IMG/VR virus record: IMGVR_UViG_2728369393_000001
From: a virus
Lineage: Duplodnaviria > Heunggongvirae > Uroviricota > Caudoviricetes
Direction: 5' to 3' (one strand)
Length of the DNA stretch: 64,000 nt
The notes beneath the pieces were generated by a model. That model had not been told where the DNA came from and made no database searches. It saw only the letters and a program-made list of their open reading frames with translations. The stretch's first letter is position 1; the number at the start of each line of letters is the position of its first letter. The position numbers were made by a program, and so were the translations under genes. Below, piece after piece: positions 47,516 through 58,112 of the stretch.

Positions 47516-48246
47516 TGGTTGCCTCCTTTGCGAAGCTGGGCAGCAAAGTCAACTAACCACTCAGTCATTTCAACCTTCCCTACCAGGTCTGAACCAGGGT
47601 GCATACAGCAATCACTCTGCGCCGCTTTGAAATCCTTATACTCATATTCTTGGGCCACCAGATTTTTTGCAGCTTCTATAGCAGCATCCACCCCCTGCGC
47701 CCGGACTTCAGCCAAGAAAGCGTCGGTGGCTGACATATTTCCTGTTGCCTTCATGGCCTTCAAAATAACCAGAACGCCATCTCGCCCAACCACCTCAGCG
47801 ATAACCTCGGTGTTGTCGCCAACAACATCGCAGAATGCCTGAAATGCCTTACGAGCCAGCTCATTCTCCACTGCCAGCGCCGTGCGATTACCCTCCAGCT
47901 CTGCAATGCGCTGTTTTGCGGCATCCAGTTCAATCGACAATTTTTCCAACTGCTCTTGATGCTTCTTGTATTCCTGATATGCGTGCCAAGACTGACCTTT
48001 GCGCACACTATCAGTGATATCAGTAATCTGTTCTGGTGTTAGCGTGGTCAGTGGCTGTGATGGGAAAATAAGCACTTTCCCGGAATCCCAATCAAAACCA
48101 GCGTGAATTGACTGAACCTCAACTGAAGGTGTTGAACCAATGCTGCCAGGCGAATGAACAACGATTGTTACATCCATATCGCGACGATGGCTGTGGTTGT
48201 TGGACAAAATACGATTCACCAACTCAGAAAATTTGGAAATTTTCAT
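47512..48246 (-). CDS. hypothetical protein, paralog family B
   Basis: 244 aa; ATDAFLAEVRA module and RKGGNQ C-terminus shared with neighbours. Confidence 0.45.
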   Translation of the reverse strand: MKISKFSELVNRILSNNHSHRRDMDVTIVVHSPGSIGSTPSVEVQSIHAGFDWDSGKVLIFPSQPLTTLTPEQITDITDSVRKGQSWHAYQEYKKHQEQLEKLSIELDAAKQRIAELEGNRTALAVENELARKAFQAFCDVVGDNTEVIAEVVGRDGVLVILKAMKATGNMSATDAFLAEVRAQGVDAAIEAAKNLVAQEYEYKDFKAAQSDCCMHPGSDLVGKVEMTEWLVDFAAQLRKGGNQ

Positions 48247-48566
48247 GCTGATTCCCCTTTCTCTGCTCTCTCCTGTCGGAACATCACTATCATCAGGTCG
48301 CCTTTTGTCGCTATCCTGGCTGTTGTACCTGGTTCAATGCGGCTAAGCTCAAATGCGTCATAGAACGCTTCTAATGCCTTCTGGCGTAGTTCCTGTTTGC
48401 GCCGTTTTTTCCACTGTTTTAGGAAAATGGAACCCAGCCATCGCCATGTGCGGGACATGATGTAAAGCCAACCGAGAAGTGCCAGACCGGTATTTAGGAG
48501 CGTATCGATCGTTATTGTCGTGTCGATATTCACTGGCTGCTTCCTTTGCGAATCTGTTCCGCCCAT
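48243..48566 (-). CDS. small membrane protein
   Basis: 107 aa, one hydrophobic helix. Confidence 0.35.
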   Translation of the reverse strand: MGGTDSQRKQPVNIDTTITIDTLLNTGLALLGWLYIMSRTWRWLGSIFLKQWKKRRKQELRQKALEAFYDAFELSRIEPGTTARIATKGDLMIVMFRQERAEKGESA

Positions 48567-49267
48567 TCTTCAAGGGATTTCTCCGCATATTCACCAGACA
48601 GGCCATCAATCGGATGCGCTTCATTAGCCAACTCTTCTTTCGCTGACAAAATCATGCGTGTAACGTCGAAAACTTCACGCAAAGACTTATTGATAAATCC
48701 GTGATTGAACGCAGCAGCAAGACGGCTGGCGGTATAGTTAATCCCCTCGTTGCGTGCTTCCGCACGAATTTCAGCCAGAAAAGCATCGGTAGCTGGAGTT
48801 TCGCTGTGGTGTAGGGCATCGTTGATAATCATTGCAGCAACTCCGGCCTGCCCTGCATCCGTGACCGACACATGATCAAGAGTTACAGCCATTGCGTGTT
48901 TCAGCCCAGCGTTCTCTGCCACCAGAGCCGCGAGCTTAGTCTCAAGCGGTGCTATTCGGCACATAGCATCAATATTTGTGTCCTCCAGGCGCTTAATTTC
49001 ACCAAGTAGCTCCAGTGCAACCTTTGGGTTGAATGCGGCAATATAACGAGCGTTGTTCTCTGCGTTTTTCAGTCCATCAAAGCCGGTCCATTTGATAACG
49101 TCTTCACATCGTTTATCACCGGGCGTATGCACCGCATACGTACCAGTACCCGGCGAAATAAATGCGACCCATTCGCCCTGTGTTGCCTGTTTTGCTATCT
49201 CACGCAGTGCCCGGTAATTAATTTCGCTCACTGGCTGCCTCCTTTGCGGAGTTGCGCTTCGATGCAC
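48530..49267 (-). CDS. hypothetical protein, paralog family B
   Basis: 245 aa; ATDAFLAEIRA and RKGSSQ C-terminus. Confidence 0.45.
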   Translation of the reverse strand: MHRSATPQRRQPVSEINYRALREIAKQATQGEWVAFISPGTGTYAVHTPGDKRCEDVIKWTGFDGLKNAENNARYIAAFNPKVALELLGEIKRLEDTNIDAMCRIAPLETKLAALVAENAGLKHAMAVTLDHVSVTDAGQAGVAAMIINDALHHSETPATDAFLAEIRAEARNEGINYTASRLAAAFNHGFINKSLREVFDVTRMILSAKEELANEAHPIDGLSGEYAEKSLEEWAEQIRKGSSQ

Positions 49268-49467
49268 GAAAAAAAAGACTCCCGAGTATGACTGTTAAGA
49301 GCTGGTGCGAACGCCGCGTTAAGAACGGCAGCATCACAGCCGTCATCAATATAGAGCGCAATTTTTTTCTCCAGGCGCGCTTTGGCTTCCTGCAACTGCA
49401 TACCCCGGCACGCACGCGGGATATAATCAGCAATTTGAGCGATAGCTTTTTCGTTCTGTTTAAACAT
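49228..49467 (-). CDS. small protein sharing the family B C-terminal tail
   Basis: 79 aa ending QLRKGGSQ. Confidence 0.35.
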   Translation of the reverse strand: MFKQNEKAIAQIADYIPRACRGMQLQEAKARLEKKIALYIDDGCDAAVLNAAFAPALNSHTRESFFSCIEAQLRKGGSQ

Positions 49468-49663
49468 GCTTCACCTCGATAGGCTTGATGGTGTCTAACA
49501 GCAGTCGACGGCGCGTATTTTCTGCAAAGTGGCGGCGTCCGGTATCTTTGTGGTAAAACTCATTTTTGCCGACGACCCACATCCGCTCTGTTTGGTGCAG
49601 TTTTTTTACCTGCGGCCCGTCTTTGGTGATCACGGTGCCGGTATGGGTTTTTACGATTGTCAT
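49460..49663 (-). CDS. hypothetical small protein
   Basis: 67 aa. Confidence 0.3.
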   Translation of the reverse strand: MTIVKTHTGTVITKDGPQVKKLHQTERMWVVGKNEFYHKDTGRRHFAENTRRRLLLDTIKPIEVKHV

Positions 49664-49746
49664 GCCACTACCTCTTCGAACAGATGAACGAGACAGGCCG
49701 ATGCTCGTCCACCTGAAAAACTGACGATTTGATGCATACTCACGGT

Positions 49747-50475
49747 TTATTCCTGAATGCGCTTAAACTCGATTACCCACACCCAGGGATTAGCGTTCCA
49801 GCTTTCTTCACCATAGATGGATTCCCACAGGCGCTGGAACGCAACCTTGGCCATTGCGAAATCCCTCTTGGGAGTAAGGAATGTTCCCGGGTGATCAGGA
49901 AGCAAACTTCCAGCAGGCGGAACGCCCTCAGCCCTTGCATCGCATTCGCTGATATCGTTCAACCGTTCAACGCGCACGTTGGTAATTTCCAACAGAATGC
50001 GTGATGCCCATCGCGGCATGTGAATTGATGGACGCCACCCACCATCAAACTTTTCATTCACAGTGTGAGGTTTCCAGTCGGCATCATCGGGTATCGACCA
50101 TAAGCCGTAATCACCAGGTTTTTGCTCACAACTGGCCCGATAAATCCTTGCTGCGTTCTTCTCATCGCCACGACAAAGGTTGTCGTTCCAGTCCACACTG
50201 CAACCATCTTCATTGCCTAATATCGTCCATGTTTCACGAACCCAAATTCGATCGCCGACGATACCAAAGGGGCAATTGAAAACACTGCTTACACCATCAG
50301 CCCCGTACCACTGAAAACCTGCACCAATTTCCCTAACCATCACTGGTGCTTCTGGACCAACTTCCGCAGGCTGATTTTTCATTATCCGCCGCGTCTGCGT
50401 TTTCCTTCCTTCGAGGATGGCTCGGACCATCTCATCGTTGAAAATCATGCCGCGCTCTTTCACTTCGCCTTTCAT
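49747..50475 (-). CDS. ASCH-like domain protein
   Basis: MIFNDEMVRAILEGRKTQTRR N-terminal signature. Confidence 0.45.
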   Translation of the reverse strand: MKGEVKERGMIFNDEMVRAILEGRKTQTRRIMKNQPAEVGPEAPVMVREIGAGFQWYGADGVSSVFNCPFGIVGDRIWVRETWTILGNEDGCSVDWNDNLCRGDEKNAARIYRASCEQKPGDYGLWSIPDDADWKPHTVNEKFDGGWRPSIHMPRWASRILLEITNVRVERLNDISECDARAEGVPPAGSLLPDHPGTFLTPKRDFAMAKVAFQRLWESIYGEESWNANPWVWVIEFKRIQE

Positions 50476-50653
50476 GCATCCCCCTTACCCATGCGCGACG
50501 ATGCCGCCAAAAGTGATAGAGAACAGCCAGAAATAGATCGCGGCCATAATGATTTTGAATGCCGTGTTCATATTTTCAGCTCCTGTGATTGATTGGATAC
50601 ATGCCGCGCCTTGCGGCATGTTTTTATTTTCACTTTCTCTGTTTTAAAAATCA

Positions 50654-50670
50654 AGATTTATTAGAGCAAT
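50654..50670 (-). promoter_or_regulatory. C1 operator-like site
   Basis: minus strand ATTGCTCTAATAAATCT, 16/17. Confidence 0.55.
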
Positions 50671-51176
50671 TATTGTTGATGGAGAAGCGCGTTTTCATAC
50701 TCCCTGACCATTAACGTAAGTACGCCGTGACTCCTGAAAACACGCGCCACGTCAATCTTATCTTCCAGCGCGAACGCAATTTTACTTAGACCAATTTTCT
50801 TCAGGAGATCAATCTTTGCTGGACCGTCATTTCTGTCATCGGTGGCAGGACGCATAGATAGCAAAGGCTCAGTCCCATTTGTTACGTGCTTACGCAACCA
50901 GGCTCGTGTTTTATCCCTGGCTATCTCACAGCGCCCGGTTACAAACCAGAGGGTGTAAATGCCGGACAACTGGCGCACCATATCAATAACTGAAGTGATG
51001 GGAGCATCAGTGTCACAGGCAAGGTTAAACTCGTTCCAGTGCTCTGTTAATGCACCTTTGCCAGGTGGTGGAAGTAAATGCAGCCTGTCTTCCGTTGCCT
51101 CTGATATCGTCCCATCAATATCTACTATGACGATGTACGGACGTTCCTGGTGTGCGTGTTTATTGAAAATACTCAA
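50670..51176 (-). CDS. HAD-superfamily phosphatase-like protein
   Basis: VIVDIDGTI = DxDxT HAD motif I near N-terminus. Confidence 0.45.
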   Translation of the reverse strand: MSIFNKHAHQERPYIVIVDIDGTISEATEDRLHLLPPPGKGALTEHWNEFNLACDTDAPITSVIDMVRQLSGIYTLWFVTGRCEIARDKTRAWLRKHVTNGTEPLLSMRPATDDRNDGPAKIDLLKKIGLSKIAFALEDKIDVARVFRSHGVLTLMVREYENALLHQQ

Positions 51177-51248
51177 ATGCCCTCCTCATTGGACGAAAAA
51201 AATGCTGGTGGGAGCACTCCACCAGCATTAAAAGTGACACTGTAACTA

Positions 51249-52511
51249 TCAGCGAACGTAAATAGTGCCGCCGTTCTCTTTTTCCCATGCATCGCTACGT
51301 GCATAGCAAACATCGAGAAGTCTTCTTGCCGCAGTTTCCTCTAAACCCAATTCGACAACCAACTGCTCATGACGGCGGGTAACCACATCAAACAGGGTAT
51401 GCAGCCCTTTAGTTGCCAGATCATCAATGAATTCCGGTTCGAACGGCAGCTCTGCATCTGCCAACATAACCTCTTGCGCCCACTCAACTCGACGGACCAA
51501 TTCCGGGCGGCGGCTTTCCATCTCTTTACAGATCAATTCATGGAAGAACTCTACCCAACCTTCCGGCTGGAACTCGCGGAAAATTGCCAACGGCTGGAAG
51601 TTTGGCATCAACCATTCGTTGATTCGGATATCAATGGCATAGCCCATGTCGCAGCAGAACTGATAAGCAAAGTCCAGCTTAGAAACGATATAAGGACGCT
51701 CGTTATTGAACTCTTTAGGCGATGAGATCCCATAAGCCAGGAGGCGCGGGAAGAAGGAGATTTGCCCTAACGTCGGATGAAGTTTGCTTGCAGGGAAACG
51801 GCGCTCAGTAATGCCATACATTTCCTTCTTGAGCGTCGCAAATTTGGCATTCTCATTAACCAGCGCGGTAACCTCTGCTTTTTTATTAGCAAATGCCACG
51901 CGCGCTTCGCTTGCATCTTTAATAGTTTTTTTGAGCTGTTGGTTAAGGTCAGCGACCTGCTTACGCAGTTCCTGTCGCTCGCTTTTAGCTTTGTTATAGC
52001 GTTTCTCAAGGTTAAAAGGATCAAGTTTCATGATCTCTTTATATTGAGATTTTAGCGTTGAAATCTGTGAGTTCCGCAGTTCAACCATCGCGGTCATTTC
52101 ATTGAGTTTTGTTTCCAGCTCAATGCTTATACGTTCGGCATTATCAGCACGCTGGTTGGCGTCATGCGTCGCATCGTCGATCGCGTCCTGTTGCTGGCGT
52201 TTCAAATGTTCAATTTGCAGCTGAAGCTCTTCAATTTCTTTACCCTTCAGACCGAGATCCAACTGCATATTTTCAGCTGCATCTACCAGGGAGTTATGGC
52301 TATCAGCTTCTGCGTTATAAACATCAATAAGCTGTGCGTGAAGCATCTCCGCTGACTGAACCGCATTATCAAAAAAACGTGCTGTGAGGTCATCACAACT
52401 AACGCGGCGTTGCGCGGCCCGGATGTTCTGGATAATGGCCGGGATACCGGCATTCAGGACATCAGGGATAGATACATTTTCGATTGATTGGTTTTGTGCT
52501 GAAGTGCTCAT
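51249..52511 (-). CDS. hypothetical protein with long coiled-coil N-terminal half
   Basis: 420 aa. Confidence 0.45.
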   Translation of the reverse strand: MSTSAQNQSIENVSIPDVLNAGIPAIIQNIRAAQRRVSCDDLTARFFDNAVQSAEMLHAQLIDVYNAEADSHNSLVDAAENMQLDLGLKGKEIEELQLQIEHLKRQQQDAIDDATHDANQRADNAERISIELETKLNEMTAMVELRNSQISTLKSQYKEIMKLDPFNLEKRYNKAKSERQELRKQVADLNQQLKKTIKDASEARVAFANKKAEVTALVNENAKFATLKKEMYGITERRFPASKLHPTLGQISFFPRLLAYGISSPKEFNNERPYIVSKLDFAYQFCCDMGYAIDIRINEWLMPNFQPLAIFREFQPEGWVEFFHELICKEMESRRPELVRRVEWAQEVMLADAELPFEPEFIDDLATKGLHTLFDVVTRRHEQLVVELGLEETAARRLLDVCYARSDAWEKENGGTIYVR

Positions 52512-52512
52512 T

Positions 52513-52731
52513 TCAAAGTTCCGTATTAGCTTGTGCTTCGGTCATTTTTCCTAAGTATGAAGGAGGAAGGACTACGCAATTTGTATCCAGTCCCTCACCT
52601 ATGGCAGCCTGTAAAATTCTGGCTAAGGTGAGTCTCTTGTTGCGATACCTGGTGATGACATGCCTGATACCGCCGGTCGGCGTAACAAAGGCGATCAGCC
52701 AGTAGTGATATTTCCGTCGGAATGGCCACAT
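52513..52731 (-). CDS. hypothetical small protein
   Basis: 72 aa. Confidence 0.3.
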   Translation of the reverse strand: MWPFRRKYHYWLIAFVTPTGGIRHVITRYRNKRLTLARILQAAIGEGLDTNCVVLPPSYLGKMTEAQANTEL

Positions 52732-52745
52732 AGTGCACCTTGTAG

Positions 52746-52762
52746 ATTGCTCTAATAAAAAA
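52746..52762 (+). promoter_or_regulatory. C1 operator-like site (left of a palindrome)
   Basis: ATTGCTCTAATAAAAAA, 15/17. Confidence 0.5.
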
Positions 52763-52794
52763 CGTGATGAGTGTACATCACGTTTTAAAAATAT

Positions 52795-52811
52795 GGAATT
52801 ATTAGAGCAAT
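52795..52811 (-). promoter_or_regulatory. C1 operator-like site (right of the palindrome, inverted)
   Basis: minus strand ATTGCTCTAATAATTCC, 14/17. Confidence 0.5.
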
Positions 52812-52812
52812 A

Positions 52813-53514
52813 TTATTCTGATTCTCGCTCAAAAAACGAGCTAATAAGGGGAAGCCAATCCTCTGACACTTCGCGAGGTCGCGGTTTGCCGTGGAAAAAG
52901 ATTATTCGGCAGTCCTTTGGTAATGCCCCATTCCCCCTGGAGTAACGCGCGCTCGCATATTTTGAACCAGGTTCCACAACATCGGCCTTGTAACTTACAA
53001 ACCATCCTGGATACAGATCCTGAAATGCTGGTGTATCATCGCCCATAACCTTCCGTAAGAACCCCTGATCACCCCAGCACTCAGTAGTGACACAACGAGA
53101 AATCCAACCTTCCGGATCTTGCCAGAATGAACTCCAGATATGCGCTTTTACACTATTTGGTATCCACAGGGCACCGCTACCACGATATTGTGGATGGTAA
53201 AAATCCCTAAGCATGGTGAAGCTGGTTGGTGGATTCTCAAGGATTGGGCGTATATCACCGGCAATAACTGTGTCCAAATCCAGATAGAACAGATCATCTG
53301 TTATATCCGGTCGGAACAACTCGATTTTCGCCCACCAGCCACGGCACTTTTGCCACTGGTTGATCAATGGGACAACTTTGACGCCAGGTACATGTAAACG
53401 CTTCAGGTCTGTCAGGCAAATAATTTCATAGCCTTTTGGCAGTTGATTAACCAGCCACTGCACATCGGAAGCGTTATAGTCACCACCAGAGCGAAAAACT
53501 AAAGCAATCTTCAT
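52813..53514 (-). CDS. hypothetical protein, possible DxD-type glycosyltransferase
   Basis: 233 aa; YLDLDTV motif; weak. Confidence 0.35.
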
Positions 53515-54203
53515 GCTGCACCATCACCTTTCACTTTCATCAATGTCAGGTTTCCGCAAAATACGGCACCAGTGTCGATATACTGCTGATTCCAGAATGT
53601 CTTCGGGCTTTTCACCGGAGTGTGACCAAAGATAAAACGATCTGCGCCCGAAATTTCGCCACCAATATCATCCATCGAATCACTGATACGCTCGCGCGCC
53701 CAGACAACGTTGAAAAGCGGCACCTCCTTACCGAATTGGTATTCATTATCCGGATAGTCGGCATGGGCTATAACGATAGTTTCTTGCCCGGTGTTCAACT
53801 CAATGATATAGGGCAGACGCTTTACCAGCTCCACCAGCGCCCAGGCTAATATTTCCTGATCAGTGTCCAGCATGAAGAACCATTGTCCGCCATTCATTAG
53901 CCAGTTATTCACGTTGCCATCTGGACTTAACGCATCAATCATCAGCCGCTCATGGTTCCCCATCACTGCCCTGAACCAGGGCATCTGCAATAGTTCCAGA
54001 CATTCGACATTTTCAGTACCGCGATCGATAAGGTCGCCGACCGATATCAGTAAATCCTGCGCCGGGTCAAAATCCACACGATGGAGTTCGGACATCAGTC
54101 TGGTGTAGCAACCATGCAGATCACCAACAACCCAGACATTCCTGTATTTGGTACCGTCGATACGGTGATAAATTGTGGGTGCCATCATGTATTCTTCAGC
54201 CAT
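53511..54203 (-). CDS. ppp: Ser/Thr protein phosphatase (calcineurin-like metallophosphoesterase, lambda PP / P1 Ppp-like)
   Basis: GDLHGC .. GDLIDRG .. GNHE metallophosphatase motifs. Confidence 0.8.
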
Positions 54204-54811
54204 TCTTTAAGAGTCATCTGCGGAATACCTCCCATTTTCCCGCATGAAACAACGTCAATCTGTTCACGCGCAGACTGGAATAACAAAGGCAGGTGACTTA
54301 GATTTTTTGGCGTGCCGCCGGAGTGAACGCGTGGTTCTTGTGTAGCGTCAACGCCCACCAGGGCGACATGTTTGAATCCGATATGGAAAGCCAGGTTCAG
54401 AGCGCCATATGCACTATTGCCGCTGGCAATTTCATTCTCATCTTCGCAAAGTCCGAAATGTGCGGACCAGCGCCACGCCCACCACTCGGGAGAATTCATA
54501 TTTTTTGGCTCCATGCCACGATCAGCCACACGACGGAAGCACAGAACGCCGTCTCTGACTTCACGTTCTTTAACATCGGGTAGTGCCATGCAATAACAAA
54601 CACCACGGCGACGGCGGCCACGACCAACGCGCCGCATATTGTCTGGCGATGGATCAAGTGTGAAAAAATAAGAAGCGCGGTTCAGCCAGTCGATGGCCCC
54701 ATTGACCGCTATAATCGGCACTCCGCGCGGCGCAACAAAGTTTGCGGCGCTTGGGCCACTGCCGACGATAATAACGCGATCACTGCCTCTAAATTTATTC
54801 TTGGGAAACAT
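54185..54811 (-). CDS. hypothetical Rossmann-like protein, GSGPS-motif paralog 1
   Basis: [16 protein letters not shown]. Confidence 0.4.
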
Positions 54812-55371
54812 TGAATTGCACTGCTCCTACTTGCATTCAAAATATGTAAATCTGCGTGTTTTTTGCGGGTATCCAGGAACTGCTGTTGCCATTTTGAAAT
54901 AGACACCTGCGTTGGATTCCGTAGGGCTTGAGGGTGCGCGCCATGCCAATGAAGGCCGTTTTGCAGAGAACAGTCATAGCCGACTAATACAACTACTTCA
55001 GCCCCTGATTCAGCAGCCAGACTGATAGCCTGCGCGCCGCTATTTACCCCTTCCGCCGGTCCACAATATCGCCTGTACTCCAACGAAAATGATTTCGCCG
55101 CCGCCAGGTTGGCTGTCACTTTGCGGAATTTCCCTCCCGGTATGGTGGATCCGTATTGCTTCCACCATGACAAATCACCGGCGTATAAGGCATAAATGTC
55201 ATCGAACATCTGCCAGGAATTGTTAACCGCGATGATTGAACAGCCAGTTTTTTCTATAGCAGCACAGTCCTCACGAGTGAGTGACGGACCGCTACCGACA
55301 CAAAAAACAGTCCTAGTCGCCCTGGGTGGTATGTTCATTCTCAGCTGCAAATTCAGCCTCCAGGCGAGCAT
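54709..55371 (-). CDS. hypothetical Rossmann-like protein, GSGPS-motif paralog 2
   Basis: VFCVGSGPS..IIAVNNS; likely start at internal ATG (MNIPP) at 55338. Confidence 0.4.
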   Translation of the reverse strand: MLAWRLNLQLRMNIPPRATRTVFCVGSGPSLTREDCAAIEKTGCSIIAVNNSWQMFDDIYALYAGDLSWWKQYGSTIPGGKFRKVTANLAAAKSFSLEYRRYCGPAEGVNSGAQAISLAAESGAEVVVLVGYDCSLQNGLHWHGAHPQALRNPTQVSISKWQQQFLDTRKKHADLHILNASRSSAIQCFPRINLEAVIALLSSAVAQAPQTLLRRAECRL

Positions 55372-55534
55372 TCATTTCAGCGATTACCGGGTCCACTACA
55401 GCATCTGCTTCCTGTTCATTACGCGGCATGATCGATGCCAGCGATTCATAATTAGCCTTGGATGACACGATTATTCTCCCGATGTTAATGTGCGCTGTAT
55501 CAAAGAACACATATGCACTAATTAATTTATTATT

Positions 55535-56113
55535 TCACGTAGCGAACAACCACTTGTCACCGTTCAATACATGCTCAATAGCCTCACCCTTTTTAAGGCT
55601 CATGTATTCCAGGATGGCGGTTATCGCTTGTTCTGCACCATACGCAAGAACGACGTAGTAACCTTCCTCTCTAAGCCTGCGCATCCAGGCGATCTGCTCT
55701 TTCGTCGGGGCTTTACCATTTGGTTCTTTAAGCTCAATTCGCATGCCGTGATAAATACCGCATGCTTTATCGAGACTCATGTCCGGATAACCTTTTTTCT
55801 GCCCTTCAGCCTTCATTTTCCCGGCGGTTGCTTTTGAACGTTTCCCTCCGTTAGGCGTTGCATGCAACAGCTCATAGATGTCAGGGTGCTTGCGTTCGAA
55901 GTAATCAAAAATGAAAACCTGCTCGAAGTGCTCGCAATTTCCGTCGCGCAGGTCGGGGTTCTTTGCCAGTGCTGCAAGTGCCTTCGCATGTGGAGAAACT
56001 TCTTTTACCGGCGCAAGCGATAAGAATGGATCCTTTTTGGTTTTTGGCCTGGACCGCCCCTTATTTCGACGCTCACTAAAAGCCTGAAACTCTTCCTCAG
56101 TAAAGCGCAACAT
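55535..56113 (-). CDS. VRR-NUC / PD-(D/E)xK nuclease-like protein
   Basis: D..ELK arrangement (GMRIELKEPNGK); weak. Confidence 0.35.
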   Translation of the reverse strand: MLRFTEEEFQAFSERRNKGRSRPKTKKDPFLSLAPVKEVSPHAKALAALAKNPDLRDGNCEHFEQVFIFDYFERKHPDIYELLHATPNGGKRSKATAGKMKAEGQKKGYPDMSLDKACGIYHGMRIELKEPNGKAPTKEQIAWMRRLREEGYYVVLAYGAEQAITAILEYMSLKKGEAIEHVLNGDKWLFAT

Positions 56114-56115
56114 AA

Positions 56116-56361
56116 TCAGTCAAATCCTGCCGGTCGCATGCCATATTTACGCTGTTTTGCAGCCTGCTCTTCCCTGTGCCATTGCGCACATTCAGCGTCA
56201 CAATAAATGCCTGATTCAATCGATTCATTGCAGTAACGACACTTCCCTGTAAATACCTGGCTCACGACCTGTGCCTGCTTTCTGATGTTATCGATGGCCA
56301 TGTCTTTGAGAGCTTCTAACTGATTCATGCTCAGCTCTGCATCATCAACACGTTCTGCCAA
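56116..56361 (-). CDS. TraR/DksA-type C4 zinc-finger protein
   Basis: CRYCNESIESGIYCDAECAQW. Confidence 0.5.
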   Translation of the reverse strand: MAERVDDAELSMNQLEALKDMAIDNIRKQAQVVSQVFTGKCRYCNESIESGIYCDAECAQWHREEQAAKQRKYGMRPAGFD

Positions 56362-56418
56362 TTTTGTTTCCTCGTGAAGAACCTACTTAAGGGCAGAATG
56401 ATACATTTCACAATCAAA

Positions 56419-56435
56419 ATTGCACTAATAATTTT
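56419..56435 (+). promoter_or_regulatory. C1 operator-like site in divergent promoter region
   Basis: ATTGCACTAATAATTTT, 15/17. Confidence 0.45.
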
Positions 56436-56507
56436 CTTTTATTGAGTTAAATAATCAACAAATGACTAGCGGTAGAATCACCATCATCTATTTCTGGCAG
56501 GCTGACT

Positions 56508-56885
56508 ATGGCTACATCAATCACTACAACCCAAAGCACCCGGCAATATCCTCTGACGCGGTATGACGACCGCAACATAGCCGATCCAATACTCAGGGCA
56601 GAGCTACGCAAAGAGGTGATGCTTATGTGTGAATCGAACGACAAGAATCTGACGATTTATTACGTTCTTCCCGATGAGCAATATCGCCCGGATTTGCTGG
56701 CTTACCGTATGTGGGGCATAGCAGAGCTACGCTGGGTTGTGACGCTCGCCGCCGGGCTTGAGGATGAGTCTCAGGGTATGACTGTTGGCAAAAAATTAAA
56801 ACTCCCACCTGCCACCTGGATCCGCGAAATGATTCGCCATTTCCAATACGACGGCCAGGTAATAGGGACATTATCCATTGCGTAA
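56508..56885 (+). CDS. hypothetical protein (first gene of plus-strand structural operon)
   Basis: 125 aa. Confidence 0.4.
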   Translation: MATSITTTQSTRQYPLTRYDDRNIADPILRAELRKEVMLMCESNDKNLTIYYVLPDEQYRPDLLAYRMWGIAELRWVVTLAAGLEDESQGMTVGKKLKLPPATWIREMIRHFQYDGQVIGTLSIA

Positions 56886-56894
56886 GGGAAATGA

Positions 56895-58112
56895 ATGCCA
56901 ACTGAATATGCTCGCGACAACCTTGGTCGCTATCAGACTGATGGATTAAGTGCAAAAGACTTTAACAAGGTCTTCGATCTTATCCGTAAACAGCAGCGTC
57001 AGAATCGGCGAAACGCGCGACGTACACTCACCCCAAGGATTATGGGGATGCGTAACCGCGAACTTGAGGCATTCCTCAGCCTTGGGAAAAAGAAAGATGG
57101 CACCTACTTTACGCCCGAAGATATACGCAGTTTCAACACCTCAAGGCAGGCTCATAAAACCAAATTCAAGAGCACGGTACCCGGCATTACCTATGCTCAG
57201 CTGGTGGCGCAGTCCACCAGCATTGATATAAAACGCGCTAACAACAAAGTTTCTGATGGCACAGGGATCAAAGCCGCGACATTCCTCGGGCTAAAACACA
57301 ACCTTGCATTGATATCTGTTAATGCCTCGGATGAGTCGGTCCACCAGCATCACCGTGTCAGAATTCGATTTGAGGAATGGGATAAAGCCGTTGAGGAAAT
57401 TGCTGAAGACGGTGCGAAAAAAGCCCGAATCGCTGCCGATCTCTGCAAGGGCCGGGTATCTTTCGACTGTGATTGTGGACGCCATCAATACTGGTATCGT
57501 TATATGGCCACGGCTGGTAACTATGCTGTCGCGCCGCCAAAAGAGTATGCATTCCCCAAGATCCGCAACCCTGATCTGACTGGTGTGGCCTGCAAACATG
57601 TGTTGCACGCTATGACGCGTTTTCAGTCTCCCACATGGCACAAGGCCATCATTATTGCCCTGGAAAAAGCAGCTGAACAGGTAGCCTTCGGCGATGACAA
57701 GCGGAAGACAACAACCTATTTCAAAGGCGAACTGGCTAAATCGCTCGCGCGCAACCGGACAACAACGACGGATCAGGCTAAAGCTGCGCGTGAGTATGAG
57801 CTGTATCTGAAATCTCAGGATGCATTAGGCAAAAAACTACGCGCAAAAGATAGCGCCACGGACAACGTTCGCCGGTTGTTAAAAAAAGCTCGCACCACGG
57901 CAAACAGGAAGAATGCCGAACTAAAAGCATCGCGGGTGAGGGAAGCCCAGGCTCGCGCTGAAGCCGACGCTCTCAAAAAAGCCCTGCAAACGCAGGCGAA
58001 CAACCTCATAAAGTTTTTCATGAGTCAGGGAATGGACAAGGCCGCTGCCACTGCGCAGGCGCGAAGCATTCTTGAGACACAAATTAACGAAGCCCGTAAA
58101 CGGAAAGGATAA
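56895..58112 (+). CDS. hypothetical protein with SWIM-like CxC..CxH zinc finger and basic coiled-coil C-terminus
   Basis: CDCGRHQYW .. GVACKHVLH. Confidence 0.45.
   Translation: MPTEYARDNLGRYQTDGLSAKDFNKVFDLIRKQQRQNRRNARRTLTPRIMGMRNRELEAFLSLGKKKDGTYFTPEDIRSFNTSRQAHKTKFKSTVPGITYAQLVAQSTSIDIKRANNKVSDGTGIKAATFLGLKHNLALISVNASDESVHQHHRVRIRFEEWDKAVEEIAEDGAKKARIAADLCKGRVSFDCDCGRHQYWYRYMATAGNYAVAPPKEYAFPKIRNPDLTGVACKHVLHAMTRFQSPTWHKAIIIALEKAAEQVAFGDDKRKTTTYFKGELAKSLARNRTTTTDQAKAAREYELYLKSQDALGKKLRAKDSATDNVRRLLKKARTTANRKNAELKASRVREAQARAEADALKKALQTQANNLIKFFMSQGMDKAAATAQARSILETQINEARKRKG

Follow-up and report, generated by a model that had tools for sequence, protein, structure and literature searches.

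A C1-controlled accessory block of bacteriophage P1 as a probable mosaic of functions with a candidate portable glycosylation module

The closest described counterpart of the locus analyzed here is the pmgL–pap region of bacteriophages P1 and P7 (GenBank AF234172; the P7 'hdm' and 'sht' operons, AF503408). The stretch from pmgM to pap is a long-catalogued, mostly dispensable accessory block of P1 under the control of the C1 repressor. In published single deletions and CRISPRi, the block genes are dispensable except pmgR, for which a deletion phenotype and its complementation have been reported (PMC9024508). None of the enzymes is required to form plaques. The results for pmgN are discordant, its deletion being tolerated and CRISPRi scoring it as essential. 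The single knockouts were recorded as 'normal restriction' with anti-restriction unaltered, so no anti-restriction phenotype is known for the block genes.

The window, the whole 64,000-nucleotide stretch of DNA analyzed, is bacteriophage P1, with 98.5–99.2% nucleotide identity and full synteny to published P1 genomes. Its block shares gene content, gene order, and C1 operators with the P1/P7 region at 98–99% nucleotide identity, and its genes were already known before this analysis. Leftward from ∼50,423, downstream of pap, the window is a variant carrying genes other than the pmgT, pmgU, and pmgV of reference P1, and in that part only P1 variants, MH422554 among them, match the sequence. The gene order in the block is pmgM, pmgN, pmgO, pmgP, ppp, pmgQ, pmgR, pmgS, and pap. 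The six enzymes predicted in an earlier note on this DNA (pap, pmgQ, ppp, pmgP, pmgO, and pmgM) are genuine minus-strand genes at the coordinates that it gave; its span, 50670-56113, also holds the non-enzyme genes pmgN, pmgR, and pmgS, which it left unmentioned. On the whole, we lean toward a block that is a mosaic of independent functions rather than a single pathway and that holds a probable glycosylation module.

The block had been called 'repressor-flanked'. This is correct for binding sites of the C1 repressor, which lie at the block edges and within it, but not for repressor genes, none of which was found flanking the block among the window genes or in the P1 annotation. A scan of the whole window for the C1 operator consensus, tolerating three mismatches, gave 11 matches against 0.3 expected. 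The regulatory elements in and around the block are as follows.

50654..50670, minus strand: C1 operator Op88 (OpmgT), bordering pap on its downstream side; one mismatch to consensus, position shared with the P1 AF234172 annotation
51201..51229, minus strand: putative terminator-like hairpin between pmgS and pap, an 11-bp stem followed by a T run, from a consensus scan only
52746-52762, plus strand: C1 operator Op86b, operator match and P1 annotation
52795-52811, minus strand: C1 operator Op86a, operator match and P1 annotation
55512..55528, plus strand: C1 operator Op83 (Oppp), between pmgM and pmgN; one base different from the annotated P1 operator
56419..56435, plus strand: C1 operator Op82 (O26), in the divergent promoter region of pmgL and tail gene 26; two mismatches to consensus

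Op83 was missed by the scan because it has four mismatches to the consensus. The P1 annotation places a predicted pmgR promoter between Op86b and Op86a (within 52746..52811) and the late promoters LPpmgL and LP26 at the Op82 region. The operators divide the block into three units and, together with the published dispensability, bear out the suggestion of an accessory, co-regulated, enzyme-rich block. The small genes that head two of the units and the non-enzyme genes near pap are listed below.

51249..52511, minus strand: pmgS, a non-essential 420-aa coiled-coil protein (phrog_1660, E 1e-195; P1 annotation)
52513..52731, minus strand: pmgR (phrog_3177)
55313..55468, minus strand: pmgN, a small ORF heading the pmgN–pmgQ unit, coordinates transferred from the P1 annotation
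56116..56361, minus strand: pmgL, a small DksA/TraR-like zinc-finger protein (phrog_54, E 1.6e-12; P1 annotation)

The window ORF at 55313-55510 covers pmgN, and pmgL, just beyond the span of the earlier note, heads the pmgL–pmgM unit. PmgR and PmgS are probably head-completion or morphogenesis proteins; the P7 counterpart of PmgS is named ShtB, 'sheath contraction'.

Three enzymes belong to recognizable families of phosphatases and nucleases.

50670..51176, minus strand: pap, 168 aa, a predicted stand-alone HAD phosphatase of the PNKP 3'-phosphatase type, DIDGT at residues 19-23
53511..54203, minus strand: ppp, 230 aa, a lambda-type Ser/Thr protein phosphatase, between pmgP and pmgQ
55535..56113, minus strand: pmgM, 192 aa, a predicted VRR-NUC (PD-(D/E)xK) nuclease with D111 and E127-x-K129

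Pap, noted earlier for its HAD motif, scores above the cut-off of Pfam HAD_PNKP (43.2 bits versus 27.6, E 5.5e-11) and matches phrog_415 (E 3e-55). Like the phosphatase domain of T4 Pnkp, it is of the DxDxT/HAD_PNKP type, but it has no kinase domain. Homologs were found in 1052 phage records, mostly T1-like phages, Webervirus, and podophages, and the groups supplying most of them gave no match in the PmgO and PmgQ searches. Pap probably acts independently, with nucleic-acid 3'-phosphate ends or nucleotides as likely substrates. Ppp was correctly recognized as a calcineurin-like protein phosphatase: it matches the lambda Ser/Thr protein phosphatase (1G5B, E 1.5e-94), with which it shares all metal motifs (GDLHG, GDLIDRG, and GNHE), and the Metallophos family (E 9e-16). 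The ppp gene was not found at the homologous position in four related loci (L003, L004, L106, and L107), and it is missing from the matching block of distant P1-like relatives and from the triads in other phages described below. It thus appears to be a lineage-specific insertion into the module, confined to the P1/P7 lineage. The VRR-NUC-like assignment of PmgM is supported by a match to the phage VRR-NUC structure 4QBL (E 8e-17), which shares the PD...ExK motif (YPD...IELK, residues 109–129, in PmgM) but not an extra N-terminal region of ∼75 aa. The Pfam VRR_NUC score, 21.2 bits, is under the cut-off of 23.8, and phrog_5702, 'Holliday junction resolvase', is matched with E 6e-27. PmgM would act as a structure-specific nuclease, most likely in branched-DNA trimming.

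The remaining three enzymes resemble glycosyltransferases.

52813..53514, minus strand: pmgQ, 233 aa, a GT8-like, predicted retaining GT-A glycosyltransferase with the DxD motif D79-L-D81 and H208 in FHGKPRP
54185..54811, minus strand: pmgP, 208 aa, a predicted MptE-like (DUF115) glycosyltransferase fold, GSGPS at 17-21 and IIAVN at 33-37
54709..55371, minus strand: pmgO, 220 aa, a predicted MptE-like glycosyltransferase fold, GSGPS at 26-30 and IIAVN at 46-50

The genes pmgO and pmgP overlap by 103 nt in the −1 frame. Pairwise BLAST of the two proteins gives only E 0.003, but profile-profile alignment of their families gives 99.3% probability (E 3e-20), which indicates that they are true, if distant, paralogs. 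The paralogy proposed in the earlier note therefore stands, while its 'Rossmann-like' label is too generic: from motifs and profiles, the fold is predicted to be MptE-like, the fold of Maf, WaaZ, and sialyltransferases. Both proteins are under the Pfam MptE-like cut-off (PmgP, residues 4-156, E 2.7e-4), and the PmgP family has 249 representatives at E ≤ 0.001. The MptE-like fold also takes in pyrophosphokinases. Conserved residues include D66, S111, and D133 in PmgO and D79 and D81 in PmgQ; the DLD motif at residues 79–81 and the GT8-like character of PmgQ confirm what had been put forward as a possible DxD glycosyltransferase.

The pmgO-pmgP-pmgQ triad recurs as a conserved portable module in unrelated phages, a finding new to this analysis. 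It is contiguous in a Citrobacter lambdoid prophage (L003) and is represented by PmgO and PmgQ in a Rhodobacter prophage (L093). In E. coli phage EP_H11 (L104) the triad comes with a protein that weakly matches the GT-B-type family Glycos_transf_1, and in a 247-kb contig (L101) with a GT-A enzyme. In L004, a single 376-aa ORF fuses PmgO and PmgP, and PmgQ and an additional GT-A come next. Some PmgO or PmgP homologs are fused or linked to SAM methyltransferases. The fusion, the apparent insertion of ppp, and the presence of kdsB in the block of distant P1-like plasmids are likewise new observations from sequence comparison. Hosts named for the PmgO and PmgQ homologs, among the matches listed, are all Gram-negative except for three Tetraselmis (green alga) virus-labelled records. 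Genomic context gives conflicting clues to the glycan acceptor: homologs lie in head/neck operons of D3, PAJU2, L092, L093, and the P0083 contig, but also in lysogenic-conversion-type positions, with a PmgQ homolog adjoining int in Chlobot and, in L003 and L100, the triad placed behind the lysis genes.

The best-supported shared function of PmgO, PmgP, and PmgQ is the building of a glycan that would modify the host or virion surface, not nucleic-acid chemistry. To our knowledge, all characterized glycosyltransferases of the MptE-like fold (Maf, WaaZ, and Cst-I/II) use CMP-activated ulosonic acids, and CMP-Kdo should be the sole such donor in E. coli K-12; from this we infer Kdo transfer by PmgO and PmgP. 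For PmgQ, the predicted reaction is the addition of a hexose in alpha linkage, with a UDP-sugar as donor. In E. coli, Maf enzymes can attach Kdo to Ser/Thr (bioRxiv 10.1101/2020.06.03.131540). A kdsB (CMP-Kdo synthetase) equivalog is present in the same block of two distant P1-like elements, Pantoea plasmid CP034366 and L107 (TIGR00466, 254–270 bits versus a cut-off of 155), a link that consists of adjacency within ∼3 kb in these two relatives. The gene is very rare in phages (6/50,697 records) and was not found in P1 itself. The module would work in the cytoplasm during lytic growth; lysogens keep it under C1 repression, and the P1 annotation has a late promoter upstream of it. It probably adds Kdo and a hexose to a virion protein or to the LPS core. 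A phage-made virion or assembly protein is our tentative preference as acceptor. Two observations count against this reading: the single pmgO, pmgP, and pmgQ knockouts have neither a plaque nor an anti-restriction defect, and in the P1 virion proteome paper the main text names none of PmgO, PmgQ, PmgS, and Ppp and makes no reference to glycosylation.

The acceptor that competes most closely is the LPS core, which is the P1 receptor. Here PmgO and PmgP would add extra inner-core Kdo in the manner of WaaZ and PmgQ a hexose in the manner of WaaJ, WaaO, or LgtC, and the altered or truncated core would block superinfection or keep progeny from sticking to debris. WaaZ is itself a match for MptE-like (E 6.9e-7), and the motif set SGPS/IIAVN/D/NS/GxD is common to it, PmgO, and PmgP. 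BLAST relates WaaZ to PmgP (E 0.001) and WaaJ to PmgQ (E 0.007), and LgtC and WbbM are among the best fold matches of PmgQ. There is also a precedent, in that the third Kdo added by WaaZ accompanies loss of the terminal outer-core disaccharide, giving glycoforms that cannot take O-antigen (PMC6358824). The largely Gram-negative hosts and the conversion-type positions fit as well. However, pmgO-pmgP-pmgQ are silent in P1 lysogens because they are C1-repressed, and new LPS would be unable to replace existing surface LPS within one latent period. Homologs also occur in jumbo-sized phage genomes (265–317 kb) and inside head/neck operons, and the WaaZ equivalog models are not matched by PmgO or PmgP at E ≤ 0.1. 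Remodeling of the core is somewhat doubtful, and a virion or assembly protein is favored over it. We know of no report of a glycosylated P1 protein.

Readings based on nucleotides or DNA fare worse. PmgO and PmgP could be diphosphokinases like MptE or thiamine pyrophosphokinase that cooperate with Pap and an ApaH-related Ppp in the synthesis or breakdown of a nucleotide-type signal or precursor, for instance in counter-defence. Pap is a phosphatase, and Ppp does match ApaH-type Ap4A hydrolase models (E 4e-19), but the P1 annotation puts its identity to lambda protein phosphatase at 64%. The recurrent partners of PmgO and PmgP are genuine glycosyltransferases (GT8, Nucleotid_trans, and a weak GT-B match) and sugar-type methyltransferases, not Pap or Ppp, and restriction phenotypes are normal in the knockouts; this proposal is improbable, and the anti-defence role suggested earlier is not upheld. 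Glycosylation of P1 DNA by the three transferases is less credible still. Phage glycosyltransferases can decorate DNA as a general precedent, but those described resemble JGT, TarP, or T4 BGT and are neither GT8 nor MptE-like (bioRxiv 10.1101/2023.12.21.572611). Methyltransferase genes adjoin some homologs, but they belong to the Methyltransf_23 and Methyltransf_24 types, and the neighboring genes checked in the window and related loci include no hydroxymethylase, 5mYOX, or thymidylate-synthase-like partner. Aside from its Dam-type methylation, P1 DNA shows ordinary sensitivity to restriction enzymes. With no base-modifying enzyme found in the block and a GT8-like PmgQ unlike known DNA glycosyltransferases, the proposed context of nucleotide or DNA modification finds no support. 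A single-pathway reading of the block was rejected, given the three operator-delimited units, the absence of ppp in relatives, and the widespread occurrence of the Pap family without glycosyltransferase matches.

The predicted glycan-building module can be compared with several described systems. LPS core assembly likewise combines enzymes of the Kdo-transferase and GT8 types. PmgO and PmgP share the MptE-like assignment and the SGP(S/T), IIAVN, D, and GxD motifs with WaaZ, but they are ∼70 aa shorter, and hhalign relates WaaZ to the PmgO family with only 7% probability. PmgQ has the GT8 fold, the DxD motif, and the C-terminal His motif in common with the core enzymes WaaJ, WaaO, and LgtC. In the Maf nonulosonic-acid glycosyltransferases (PDB 5MU5; DUF115/MptE-like), a 632-residue protein carries flanking domains and acts on flagellin, whereas PmgO and PmgP, at 208–220 aa, correspond to the catalytic core only, and no flagellin is involved. 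The virion glycosylation cassettes of mycobacteriophages (Freeman et al., 2023, PMC10527164; PMC11256854) and the PBCV-1 capsid glycosyltransferase A64R belong to other glycosyltransferase families, while the hosts of the present module are Gram-negative.

Positions 50,000–57,000 matched bacteriophage P1 across 100% of the query in a megablast search, with 99.2% identity to MH422554 and MH445380/1 and 98.5% identity to AF234172 and NC_005856. The next-closest matches to the block were P7, RCS47, SJ46, and other P1-like phage-plasmids. The block is the pmgM-to-pap segment, catalogued since the P1 genome paper, and the GenBank annotation of P1 corresponds to it gene for gene; in P7, the genes are named hdmA–D ("head morphogenesis"), ppp, shtA/B, and pap. 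The tight minus-strand run of open reading frames (ORFs) described in an earlier note, for which a model read motifs from the sequence alone, is present at 50,670–56,361 with all the named genes.

50670–51176, minus strand, pap ORF
51249–52511, minus strand, pmgS ORF
52513–52731, minus strand, pmgR ORF
52813–53514, minus strand, pmgQ ORF
53511–54203, minus strand, ppp ORF
54185–54811, minus strand, pmgP ORF
54709–55371, minus strand, pmgO ORF
about 55313–55468, minus strand, pmgN (ORF 55313–55510)
55535–56113, minus strand, pmgM ORF
56116–56361, minus strand, pmgL ORF

To the left of ~50,423, the window diverges from reference P1, with replacement of pmgT, pmgU, and pmgV. Most P1-like records end their match at this point, and the segment beyond it is common only to some P1 variants. 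Two ORFs are found in place of the pmgT/pmgU/pmgV region (~48200–50620).

49747–50475, phrog_874 ORF, 242 aa
48530–49267, Ead/Ea22-like ORF, 245 aa

Far from the block, at 1180–2470, the window contains a 300-bp tandem repeat (4.3 copies, 98% identity, score 2512) adjoined by an older 132-bp periodicity, and this is suspected to be an expanded repeat within a tail-fiber-type gene.

P1 ranks among the phages most widely used in bacterial genetics, yet roughly half of its genes still lack a defined role. Since 2004, the block has carried the label "putative morphogenetic function," with essentiality tests as the only data. Its sequence, genes, operators, and dispensability are already published, and the PHROG-based RefSeq record NC_005856 already carries the labels "glycosyltransferase," "alpha-2,3-sialyltransferase," and "metallophosphoesterase"; "VRR-NUC" appears in the P1-like phage NC_050153. 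Annotation of pmgO is missing from MH422554, MH445380/1, and OP279344; in MH422554 (locus L002, 7812–8314), the tblastn match to PmgO lands under "PmgP" or under no feature.

The description of the block as repressor-flanked holds for binding sites of the C1 repressor but not for a repressor gene, none of which adjoins the block in the P1 annotation or in the window. The 17-bp C1 operator consensus has 11 matches in the window, where 0.3 would be expected by chance, and 4 of them delimit or split the block. Op82, Op83, Op86a/b, and Op88 are all at positions annotated in P1.

56419–56435, Op82, upstream of pmgL, consensus match
55512–55528, Op83, between pmgM and pmgN, 4 mismatches to the consensus, 1 base off the annotated P1 site
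52795–52811, Op86a, between pmgQ and pmgR, consensus match
52746–52762, Op86b, between pmgQ and pmgR, consensus match
50654–50670, Op88, directly after pap, consensus match
51201–51229, minus strand, strong terminator-like hairpin (11-bp stem with 6 GC pairs and a trailing T run), seen solely in a consensus scan

The span considered in the earlier note comprises three C1-controlled units: pmgL-pmgM; pmgN-pmgO-pmgP-ppp-pmgQ; and pmgR-pmgS, possibly with pap. The terminator-like hairpin between pmgS and pap suggests that pap may be partly insulated from the pmgR-pmgS transcript. The late promoter upstream of pmgL is taken from the P1 GenBank annotation only, and a guessed P1 late-promoter pattern showed no enrichment.

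Deleting pmgL, M, N, O, P, Q, S, or pap singly and in frame has been reported to cause no plaque defect and to leave "normal restriction" (PMC9024508). In a genome-wide CRISPRi study, all block genes were nonessential except pmgN (PMC10695390). The two results for pmgN conflict, as its deletion is viable, yet CRISPRi lowers plating about 70-fold; knockdown of pmgO, pmgP, ppp, and pmgQ, which lie downstream of pmgN, had no effect (PMC10695390). The position of pmgN beside Op83 and the promoter may be relevant to its CRISPRi result. PmgO, PmgQ, PmgS, and Ppp go unmentioned in the main text of the paper on the P1 virion proteome. The published knockouts have normal anti-restriction phenotypes, and nothing in the block indicates DNA or nucleotide modification, which had been suggested together with anti-defense functions. 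A dense accessory block of enzymes, possibly for host takeover, had been envisaged as well: the block is indeed accessory and coregulated, but it is not one system. Mosaic in makeup, it combines a nuclease, the glycosylation triad pmgO-pmgP-pmgQ, a protein phosphatase gained by insertion, genes for morphogenesis, and a HAD phosphatase.

The motifs on which the individual enzyme calls were based lie at the expected residues: DIDGT in Pap, DLD in PmgQ, GDLHG/GDLIDRG/GNHE in Ppp, GSGPS and IIAVN in PmgO and PmgP, and YPD...IELK in PmgM. The predicted calcineurin-like phosphatase is Ppp (230 aa), which matched the lambda Ser/Thr phosphatase structure 1G5B over its full length (E 1.5e-94), scored above the Metallophos cutoff, and has its motifs at 27–31 (GDxHG), 56–62 (GDxxDRG), and 82–85 (GNHE); by sequence, its assignment as a lambda-type PPP Ser/Thr phosphatase is secure. 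The PD-(D/E)xK-like protein proved to be PmgM, which matched the phage-type VRR-NUC structure 4QBL (E 8e-17) with YPD at 109–111 and IELK at 126–129 (PD...ExK). Its Pfam VRR-NUC score (21.2) is just below the cutoff of 23.8, and its PHROG relatives carry the label Holliday junction resolvase.

The call of a HAD-motif protein likewise stood, as Pap scored 43.2 bits with PF25109 (PNKP phosphatase; cutoff 27.6) and has DIDGT (DxDxT) at 19–23. No kinase family was matched by Pap (168 aa) in Pfam, PHROG, and HMM searches, and the phosphatase domain accounts for the whole protein. In contrast to the bifunctional T4-type polynucleotide kinase-phosphatase, Pap has only the HAD phosphatase domain, and because it has no P-loop kinase domain, the database label "3'-phosphatase, 5'-polynucleotide kinase" is overstated or wrong for it. 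The Pap family is present in 1052 phage records, mostly T1-like, Webervirus, and podophages, groups in which searches with PmgO and PmgQ gave no match. Given this wide spread, mostly in groups without PmgO or PmgQ matches, Pap is best regarded as an independent phosphatase, common among phages and of the polynucleotide 3'-phosphatase type. In one distant P1-like element (L107), the Pap homolog and kdsB overlap by 4 nt, which is not general. The overlap raised the idea of Pap as a KdsC-like Kdo-8-P phosphatase, an idea weakened by the 1052-record spread, mostly without glycosyltransferase matches, and by the finding of no Pap beside kdsB in the examined part of a Pantoea plasmid (L106, CP034366).

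The possible DxD glycosyltransferase of the earlier note is PmgQ, whose predicted structure has a GT-A fold nearest to GT8 structures. D79-L-D81 and H208 (FHGKPRP) do not vary across 29 members of the family; the DxD aligns with the DxD region of Skp1 GalT, and H208 is the C-terminal His of an H-x-x-G-x-x-KP-type motif. PmgQ had no Pfam match to PF01501 (GT8) at E ≤ 0.01, and its homologs matched only at E 0.08–0.31. Since the PF01501 gathering score is not reached, PmgQ is placed in a divergent GT8-like family rather than as a curated member. A solitary PmgQ-like gene is found on a metagenome contig (L102, 7001–7633) between pyruvate dehydrogenase genes (E1, E2, E3) and an aconitase gene, a bacterial chromosome context with no phage genes nearby; its protein (P0076) is identical to one named in Candidatus Pantoea floridensis.

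PmgO and PmgP had been described as two Rossmann-like paralogs. The paralogy is borne out, whereas the generic Rossmann assignment gives way to the MptE-like (DUF115) superfamily, in which they are true but distant paralogs. Pairwise BLAST aligned only the N-terminal motif (E 0.003), but comparison of the family profiles, with the PmgO-PmgP fusion protein P0051 left out of the PmgO family alignment, aligned 174 columns at 99.3% probability (E 3e-20). Common to both are SGPS, IIAVN, a conserved Asp, an N-S motif, and G-x-D. An hhalign match of the two families at E 1.5e-47 was discarded as an artifact, the second domain of the fusion being aligned to the PmgP family. Both window proteins score below the PF01973 gathering score of 34.6 bits (PmgO 23.6, PmgP 21.2), which is passed by the family members P0051 (44.6) and P0137 (44.1).

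The predicted structure of PmgO (pLDDT 87.5) has an MptE-like fold, and PmgP is assigned to this fold through its family profile. Single-sequence PDB searches with PmgO, PmgP, and PmgQ returned nothing significant, so that family profiles and predicted structures were required; a BFVD search returned only uncharacterized MptE-like phage proteins. The best fold match of the PmgO model is Maf, with 162 of the 220 residues of PmgO aligned to the middle of that 632-residue protein. Maf flagellin glycosyltransferases are multidomain enzymes with substrate-binding flanks, whereas PmgO is without such flanks. Thiamine pyrophosphokinases and mammalian sialyltransferases matched at lower Z. For PmgO, "alpha-2,3-sialyltransferase" is a fold-level label only, and it is among the labels that need correction, together with the kinase in the name of Pap and any inclusion of Ppp in the module. 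WaaZ matches the Pfam MptE-like model (E 6.9e-7) with the same motifs as PmgO and PmgP. Neither PmgO nor PmgP matched the WaaZ equivalog HMMs TIGR04437 and NF007333 at E ≤ 0.1, with which WaaZ itself scores 479–554 bits. Membership of the two proteins in the WaaZ family, raised by a faint PF27901 (WaaZ_KDO_III) flag on P0051, was rejected on this result and an hhalign probability of 7%; they appear to be related to WaaZ only at the superfamily level.

The pmgO and pmgP genes overlap by 103 nt (54709–54811), and pmgP is read in the −1 frame. At 54790–54796, 15 nt into pmgP, the overlap contains a canonical slippery heptamer, A AAT TTA, in the correct phase. A −1 shift at this site would yield a PmgO-PmgP fusion like the 376-aa protein of a podovirus-like contig, although this may be coincidence. 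The Citrobacter homologs have the same overlap frame relation and no heptamer; the likelihood of its chance occurrence is about 8%.

Outside P1, pmgO, pmgP, and pmgQ travel together. In a lambdoid prophage of Citrobacter rodentium (phage phiNP), the triad is contiguous (41%, 58%, and 43% identity, respectively) and lies between the lysis cassette and terminase, without ppp. The podovirus-like contig (L004) encodes PmgO and PmgP as a single 376-aa fusion protein, P0051, followed by a PmgQ homolog and a further GT-A protein; such a fusion strongly indicates that PmgO and PmgP function jointly. The order in E. coli phage EP_H11 (111 kb) is PmgO, PmgP, a 322-aa protein with a weak, subthreshold Glycos_transf_1 (GT-B-type) match, and PmgQ, and in a 247-kb contig it is PmgO, a PmgP-like protein, a Nucleotid_trans GT-A protein, and PmgQ. 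In a Rhodobacter prophage, PmgO adjoins PmgQ beside a Methyltransf_24 gene, between head and tail genes. PmgO is accompanied by a 275–296-aa protein and a Methyltransf_23 gene in Pseudomonas phages D3 and PAJU2, in a Metapseudomonas prophage and a Hafnia prophage, and in Klebsiella jumbo phage Eowyn; the 275-aa partner of the D3-/PAJU2-type phages (phrog_6804) showed no detectable relation to PmgQ or PmgP. Some members of the PmgP family are fused to SAM methyltransferase domains. These partners are as expected of glycan-building cassettes, which argues against a pyrophosphokinase reading of the MptE-like fold. The order pmgM-pmgO-pmgP-pmgQ-pmgR-pmgS is kept in L106 and L107, both of them distant P1-like elements. 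As ppp is missing there and from all other triad contexts, it is a lineage-specific insertion and not a component of the module. A profile scan of viral contigs returned P1-like loci only. Among the matches listed, all named hosts of PmgO or PmgQ homologs are Gram-negative, apart from three records of Tetraselmis (green alga) viruses, which are suspected to be bacteriophages.

Characterized glycosyltransferases with the MptE-like fold use CMP-activated ulosonic acids; the donor sugar of Cst-I and Cst-II is Neu5Ac. In E. coli K-12, the host of P1, CMP-Kdo should be the sole such donor. Maf enzymes use Pse, Leg, and Neu5Ac and, in E. coli, also attach Kdo to Ser/Thr (bioRxiv 10.1101/2020.06.03.131540), and the KdoIII transferase acting on the E. 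coli core is WaaZ (PMC6358824). In both L106 (9070–9834) and L107 (10658–11425), the pmg block includes an equivalog of kdsB (CMP-Kdo synthetase), within about 3 kb of the triad (TIGR00466 254–270 bits, cutoff 155), and NCBI annotates the L106 gene as kdsB on a 96-kb Pantoea plasmid. Phage kdsB is very rare (6/50,697 phage records), and its association with the triad rests on two genomes. No kdsB was found in P1 or the window, and P1 would depend on the host enzyme for CMP-Kdo. Fold, motifs, and gene neighborhood lead us to infer that Kdo is the sugar transferred by PmgO and PmgP and an α-hexose the one added by PmgQ.

The acceptor of these sugars may be a phage protein of the virion or its assembly, a tentative assignment that falls somewhat short of an even chance. 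In P1, the unit containing the triad is repressed by C1 in the lysogen, lies downstream of the late promoter, and is beside tail and head-completion genes. Homologs lie within head/neck operons of D3 (directly after the major capsid gene), PAJU2, and Metapseudomonas, Rhodobacter, and P0083 contigs and are also present in jumbo-sized phage genomes (265–317 kb). Maf, the top fold match, is a protein O-glycosyltransferase, and the PAJU2 homolog ORF010 is annotated as a "structural protein." A precedent for a protein acceptor is virion glycosylation in mycobacteriophages (PMC10527164). The "structural protein" annotation is found on PmgO homologs at two loci, L097 (3974–4543, PAJU2 ORF010) and L098 (3998–4570, Klebsiella phage Eowyn); if it reflects identification as a virion protein, the PmgO-type enzyme may itself be packaged.

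P1 adsorbs to the LPS core, and the host enzymes most like the two families are WaaZ and WaaJ, WaaO, or LgtC, which point to the LPS core as acceptor, a doubtful possibility. When WaaZ adds a third Kdo, the outer core is also truncated at its terminal disaccharide, and O-antigen cannot be attached to the resulting glycoforms (PMC6358824). A PmgQ homolog beside int in phage Chlobot and the triad after lysis genes in two prophages are in positions typical of conversion genes. In P1, however, LPS made during lytic growth would not be able to displace the surface LPS already present, which argues against this acceptor. What probability remains is left to any other acceptor.

The P1 "hdm" genes are put forward as a conserved Kdo-type plus GT8 glycosylation cassette, a testable hypothesis that was not found in the literature searched. 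As a portable glycosylation module, probably using CMP-Kdo, the triad replaces a vague label with an idea that can be tested cheaply. In its most specific form, the proposal is that a lytic-phase cassette of two MptE-like Kdo-type transferases and a GT8 hexosyltransferase, in P1 and many other phages of Gram-negative bacteria, O-glycosylates a protein of the virion or its assembly with a glycan that contains Kdo, which is rather unlikely to hold. Some phages supplement the cassette with additional glycosyltransferases, with methyltransferases, or with a kdsB of their own. If true, this would be, as far as we know, the first case of virion glycosylation in a classical coliphage, and Kdo would for the first time be found as a natural modification of a protein. 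If the acceptor is LPS, the triad would represent a new lytic-phase means of receptor editing. If it is a virion protein, glycosylation of phage particles would reach beyond mycobacteriophages to phages of Gram-negative bacteria, which matters for immune recognition of therapeutic phages.
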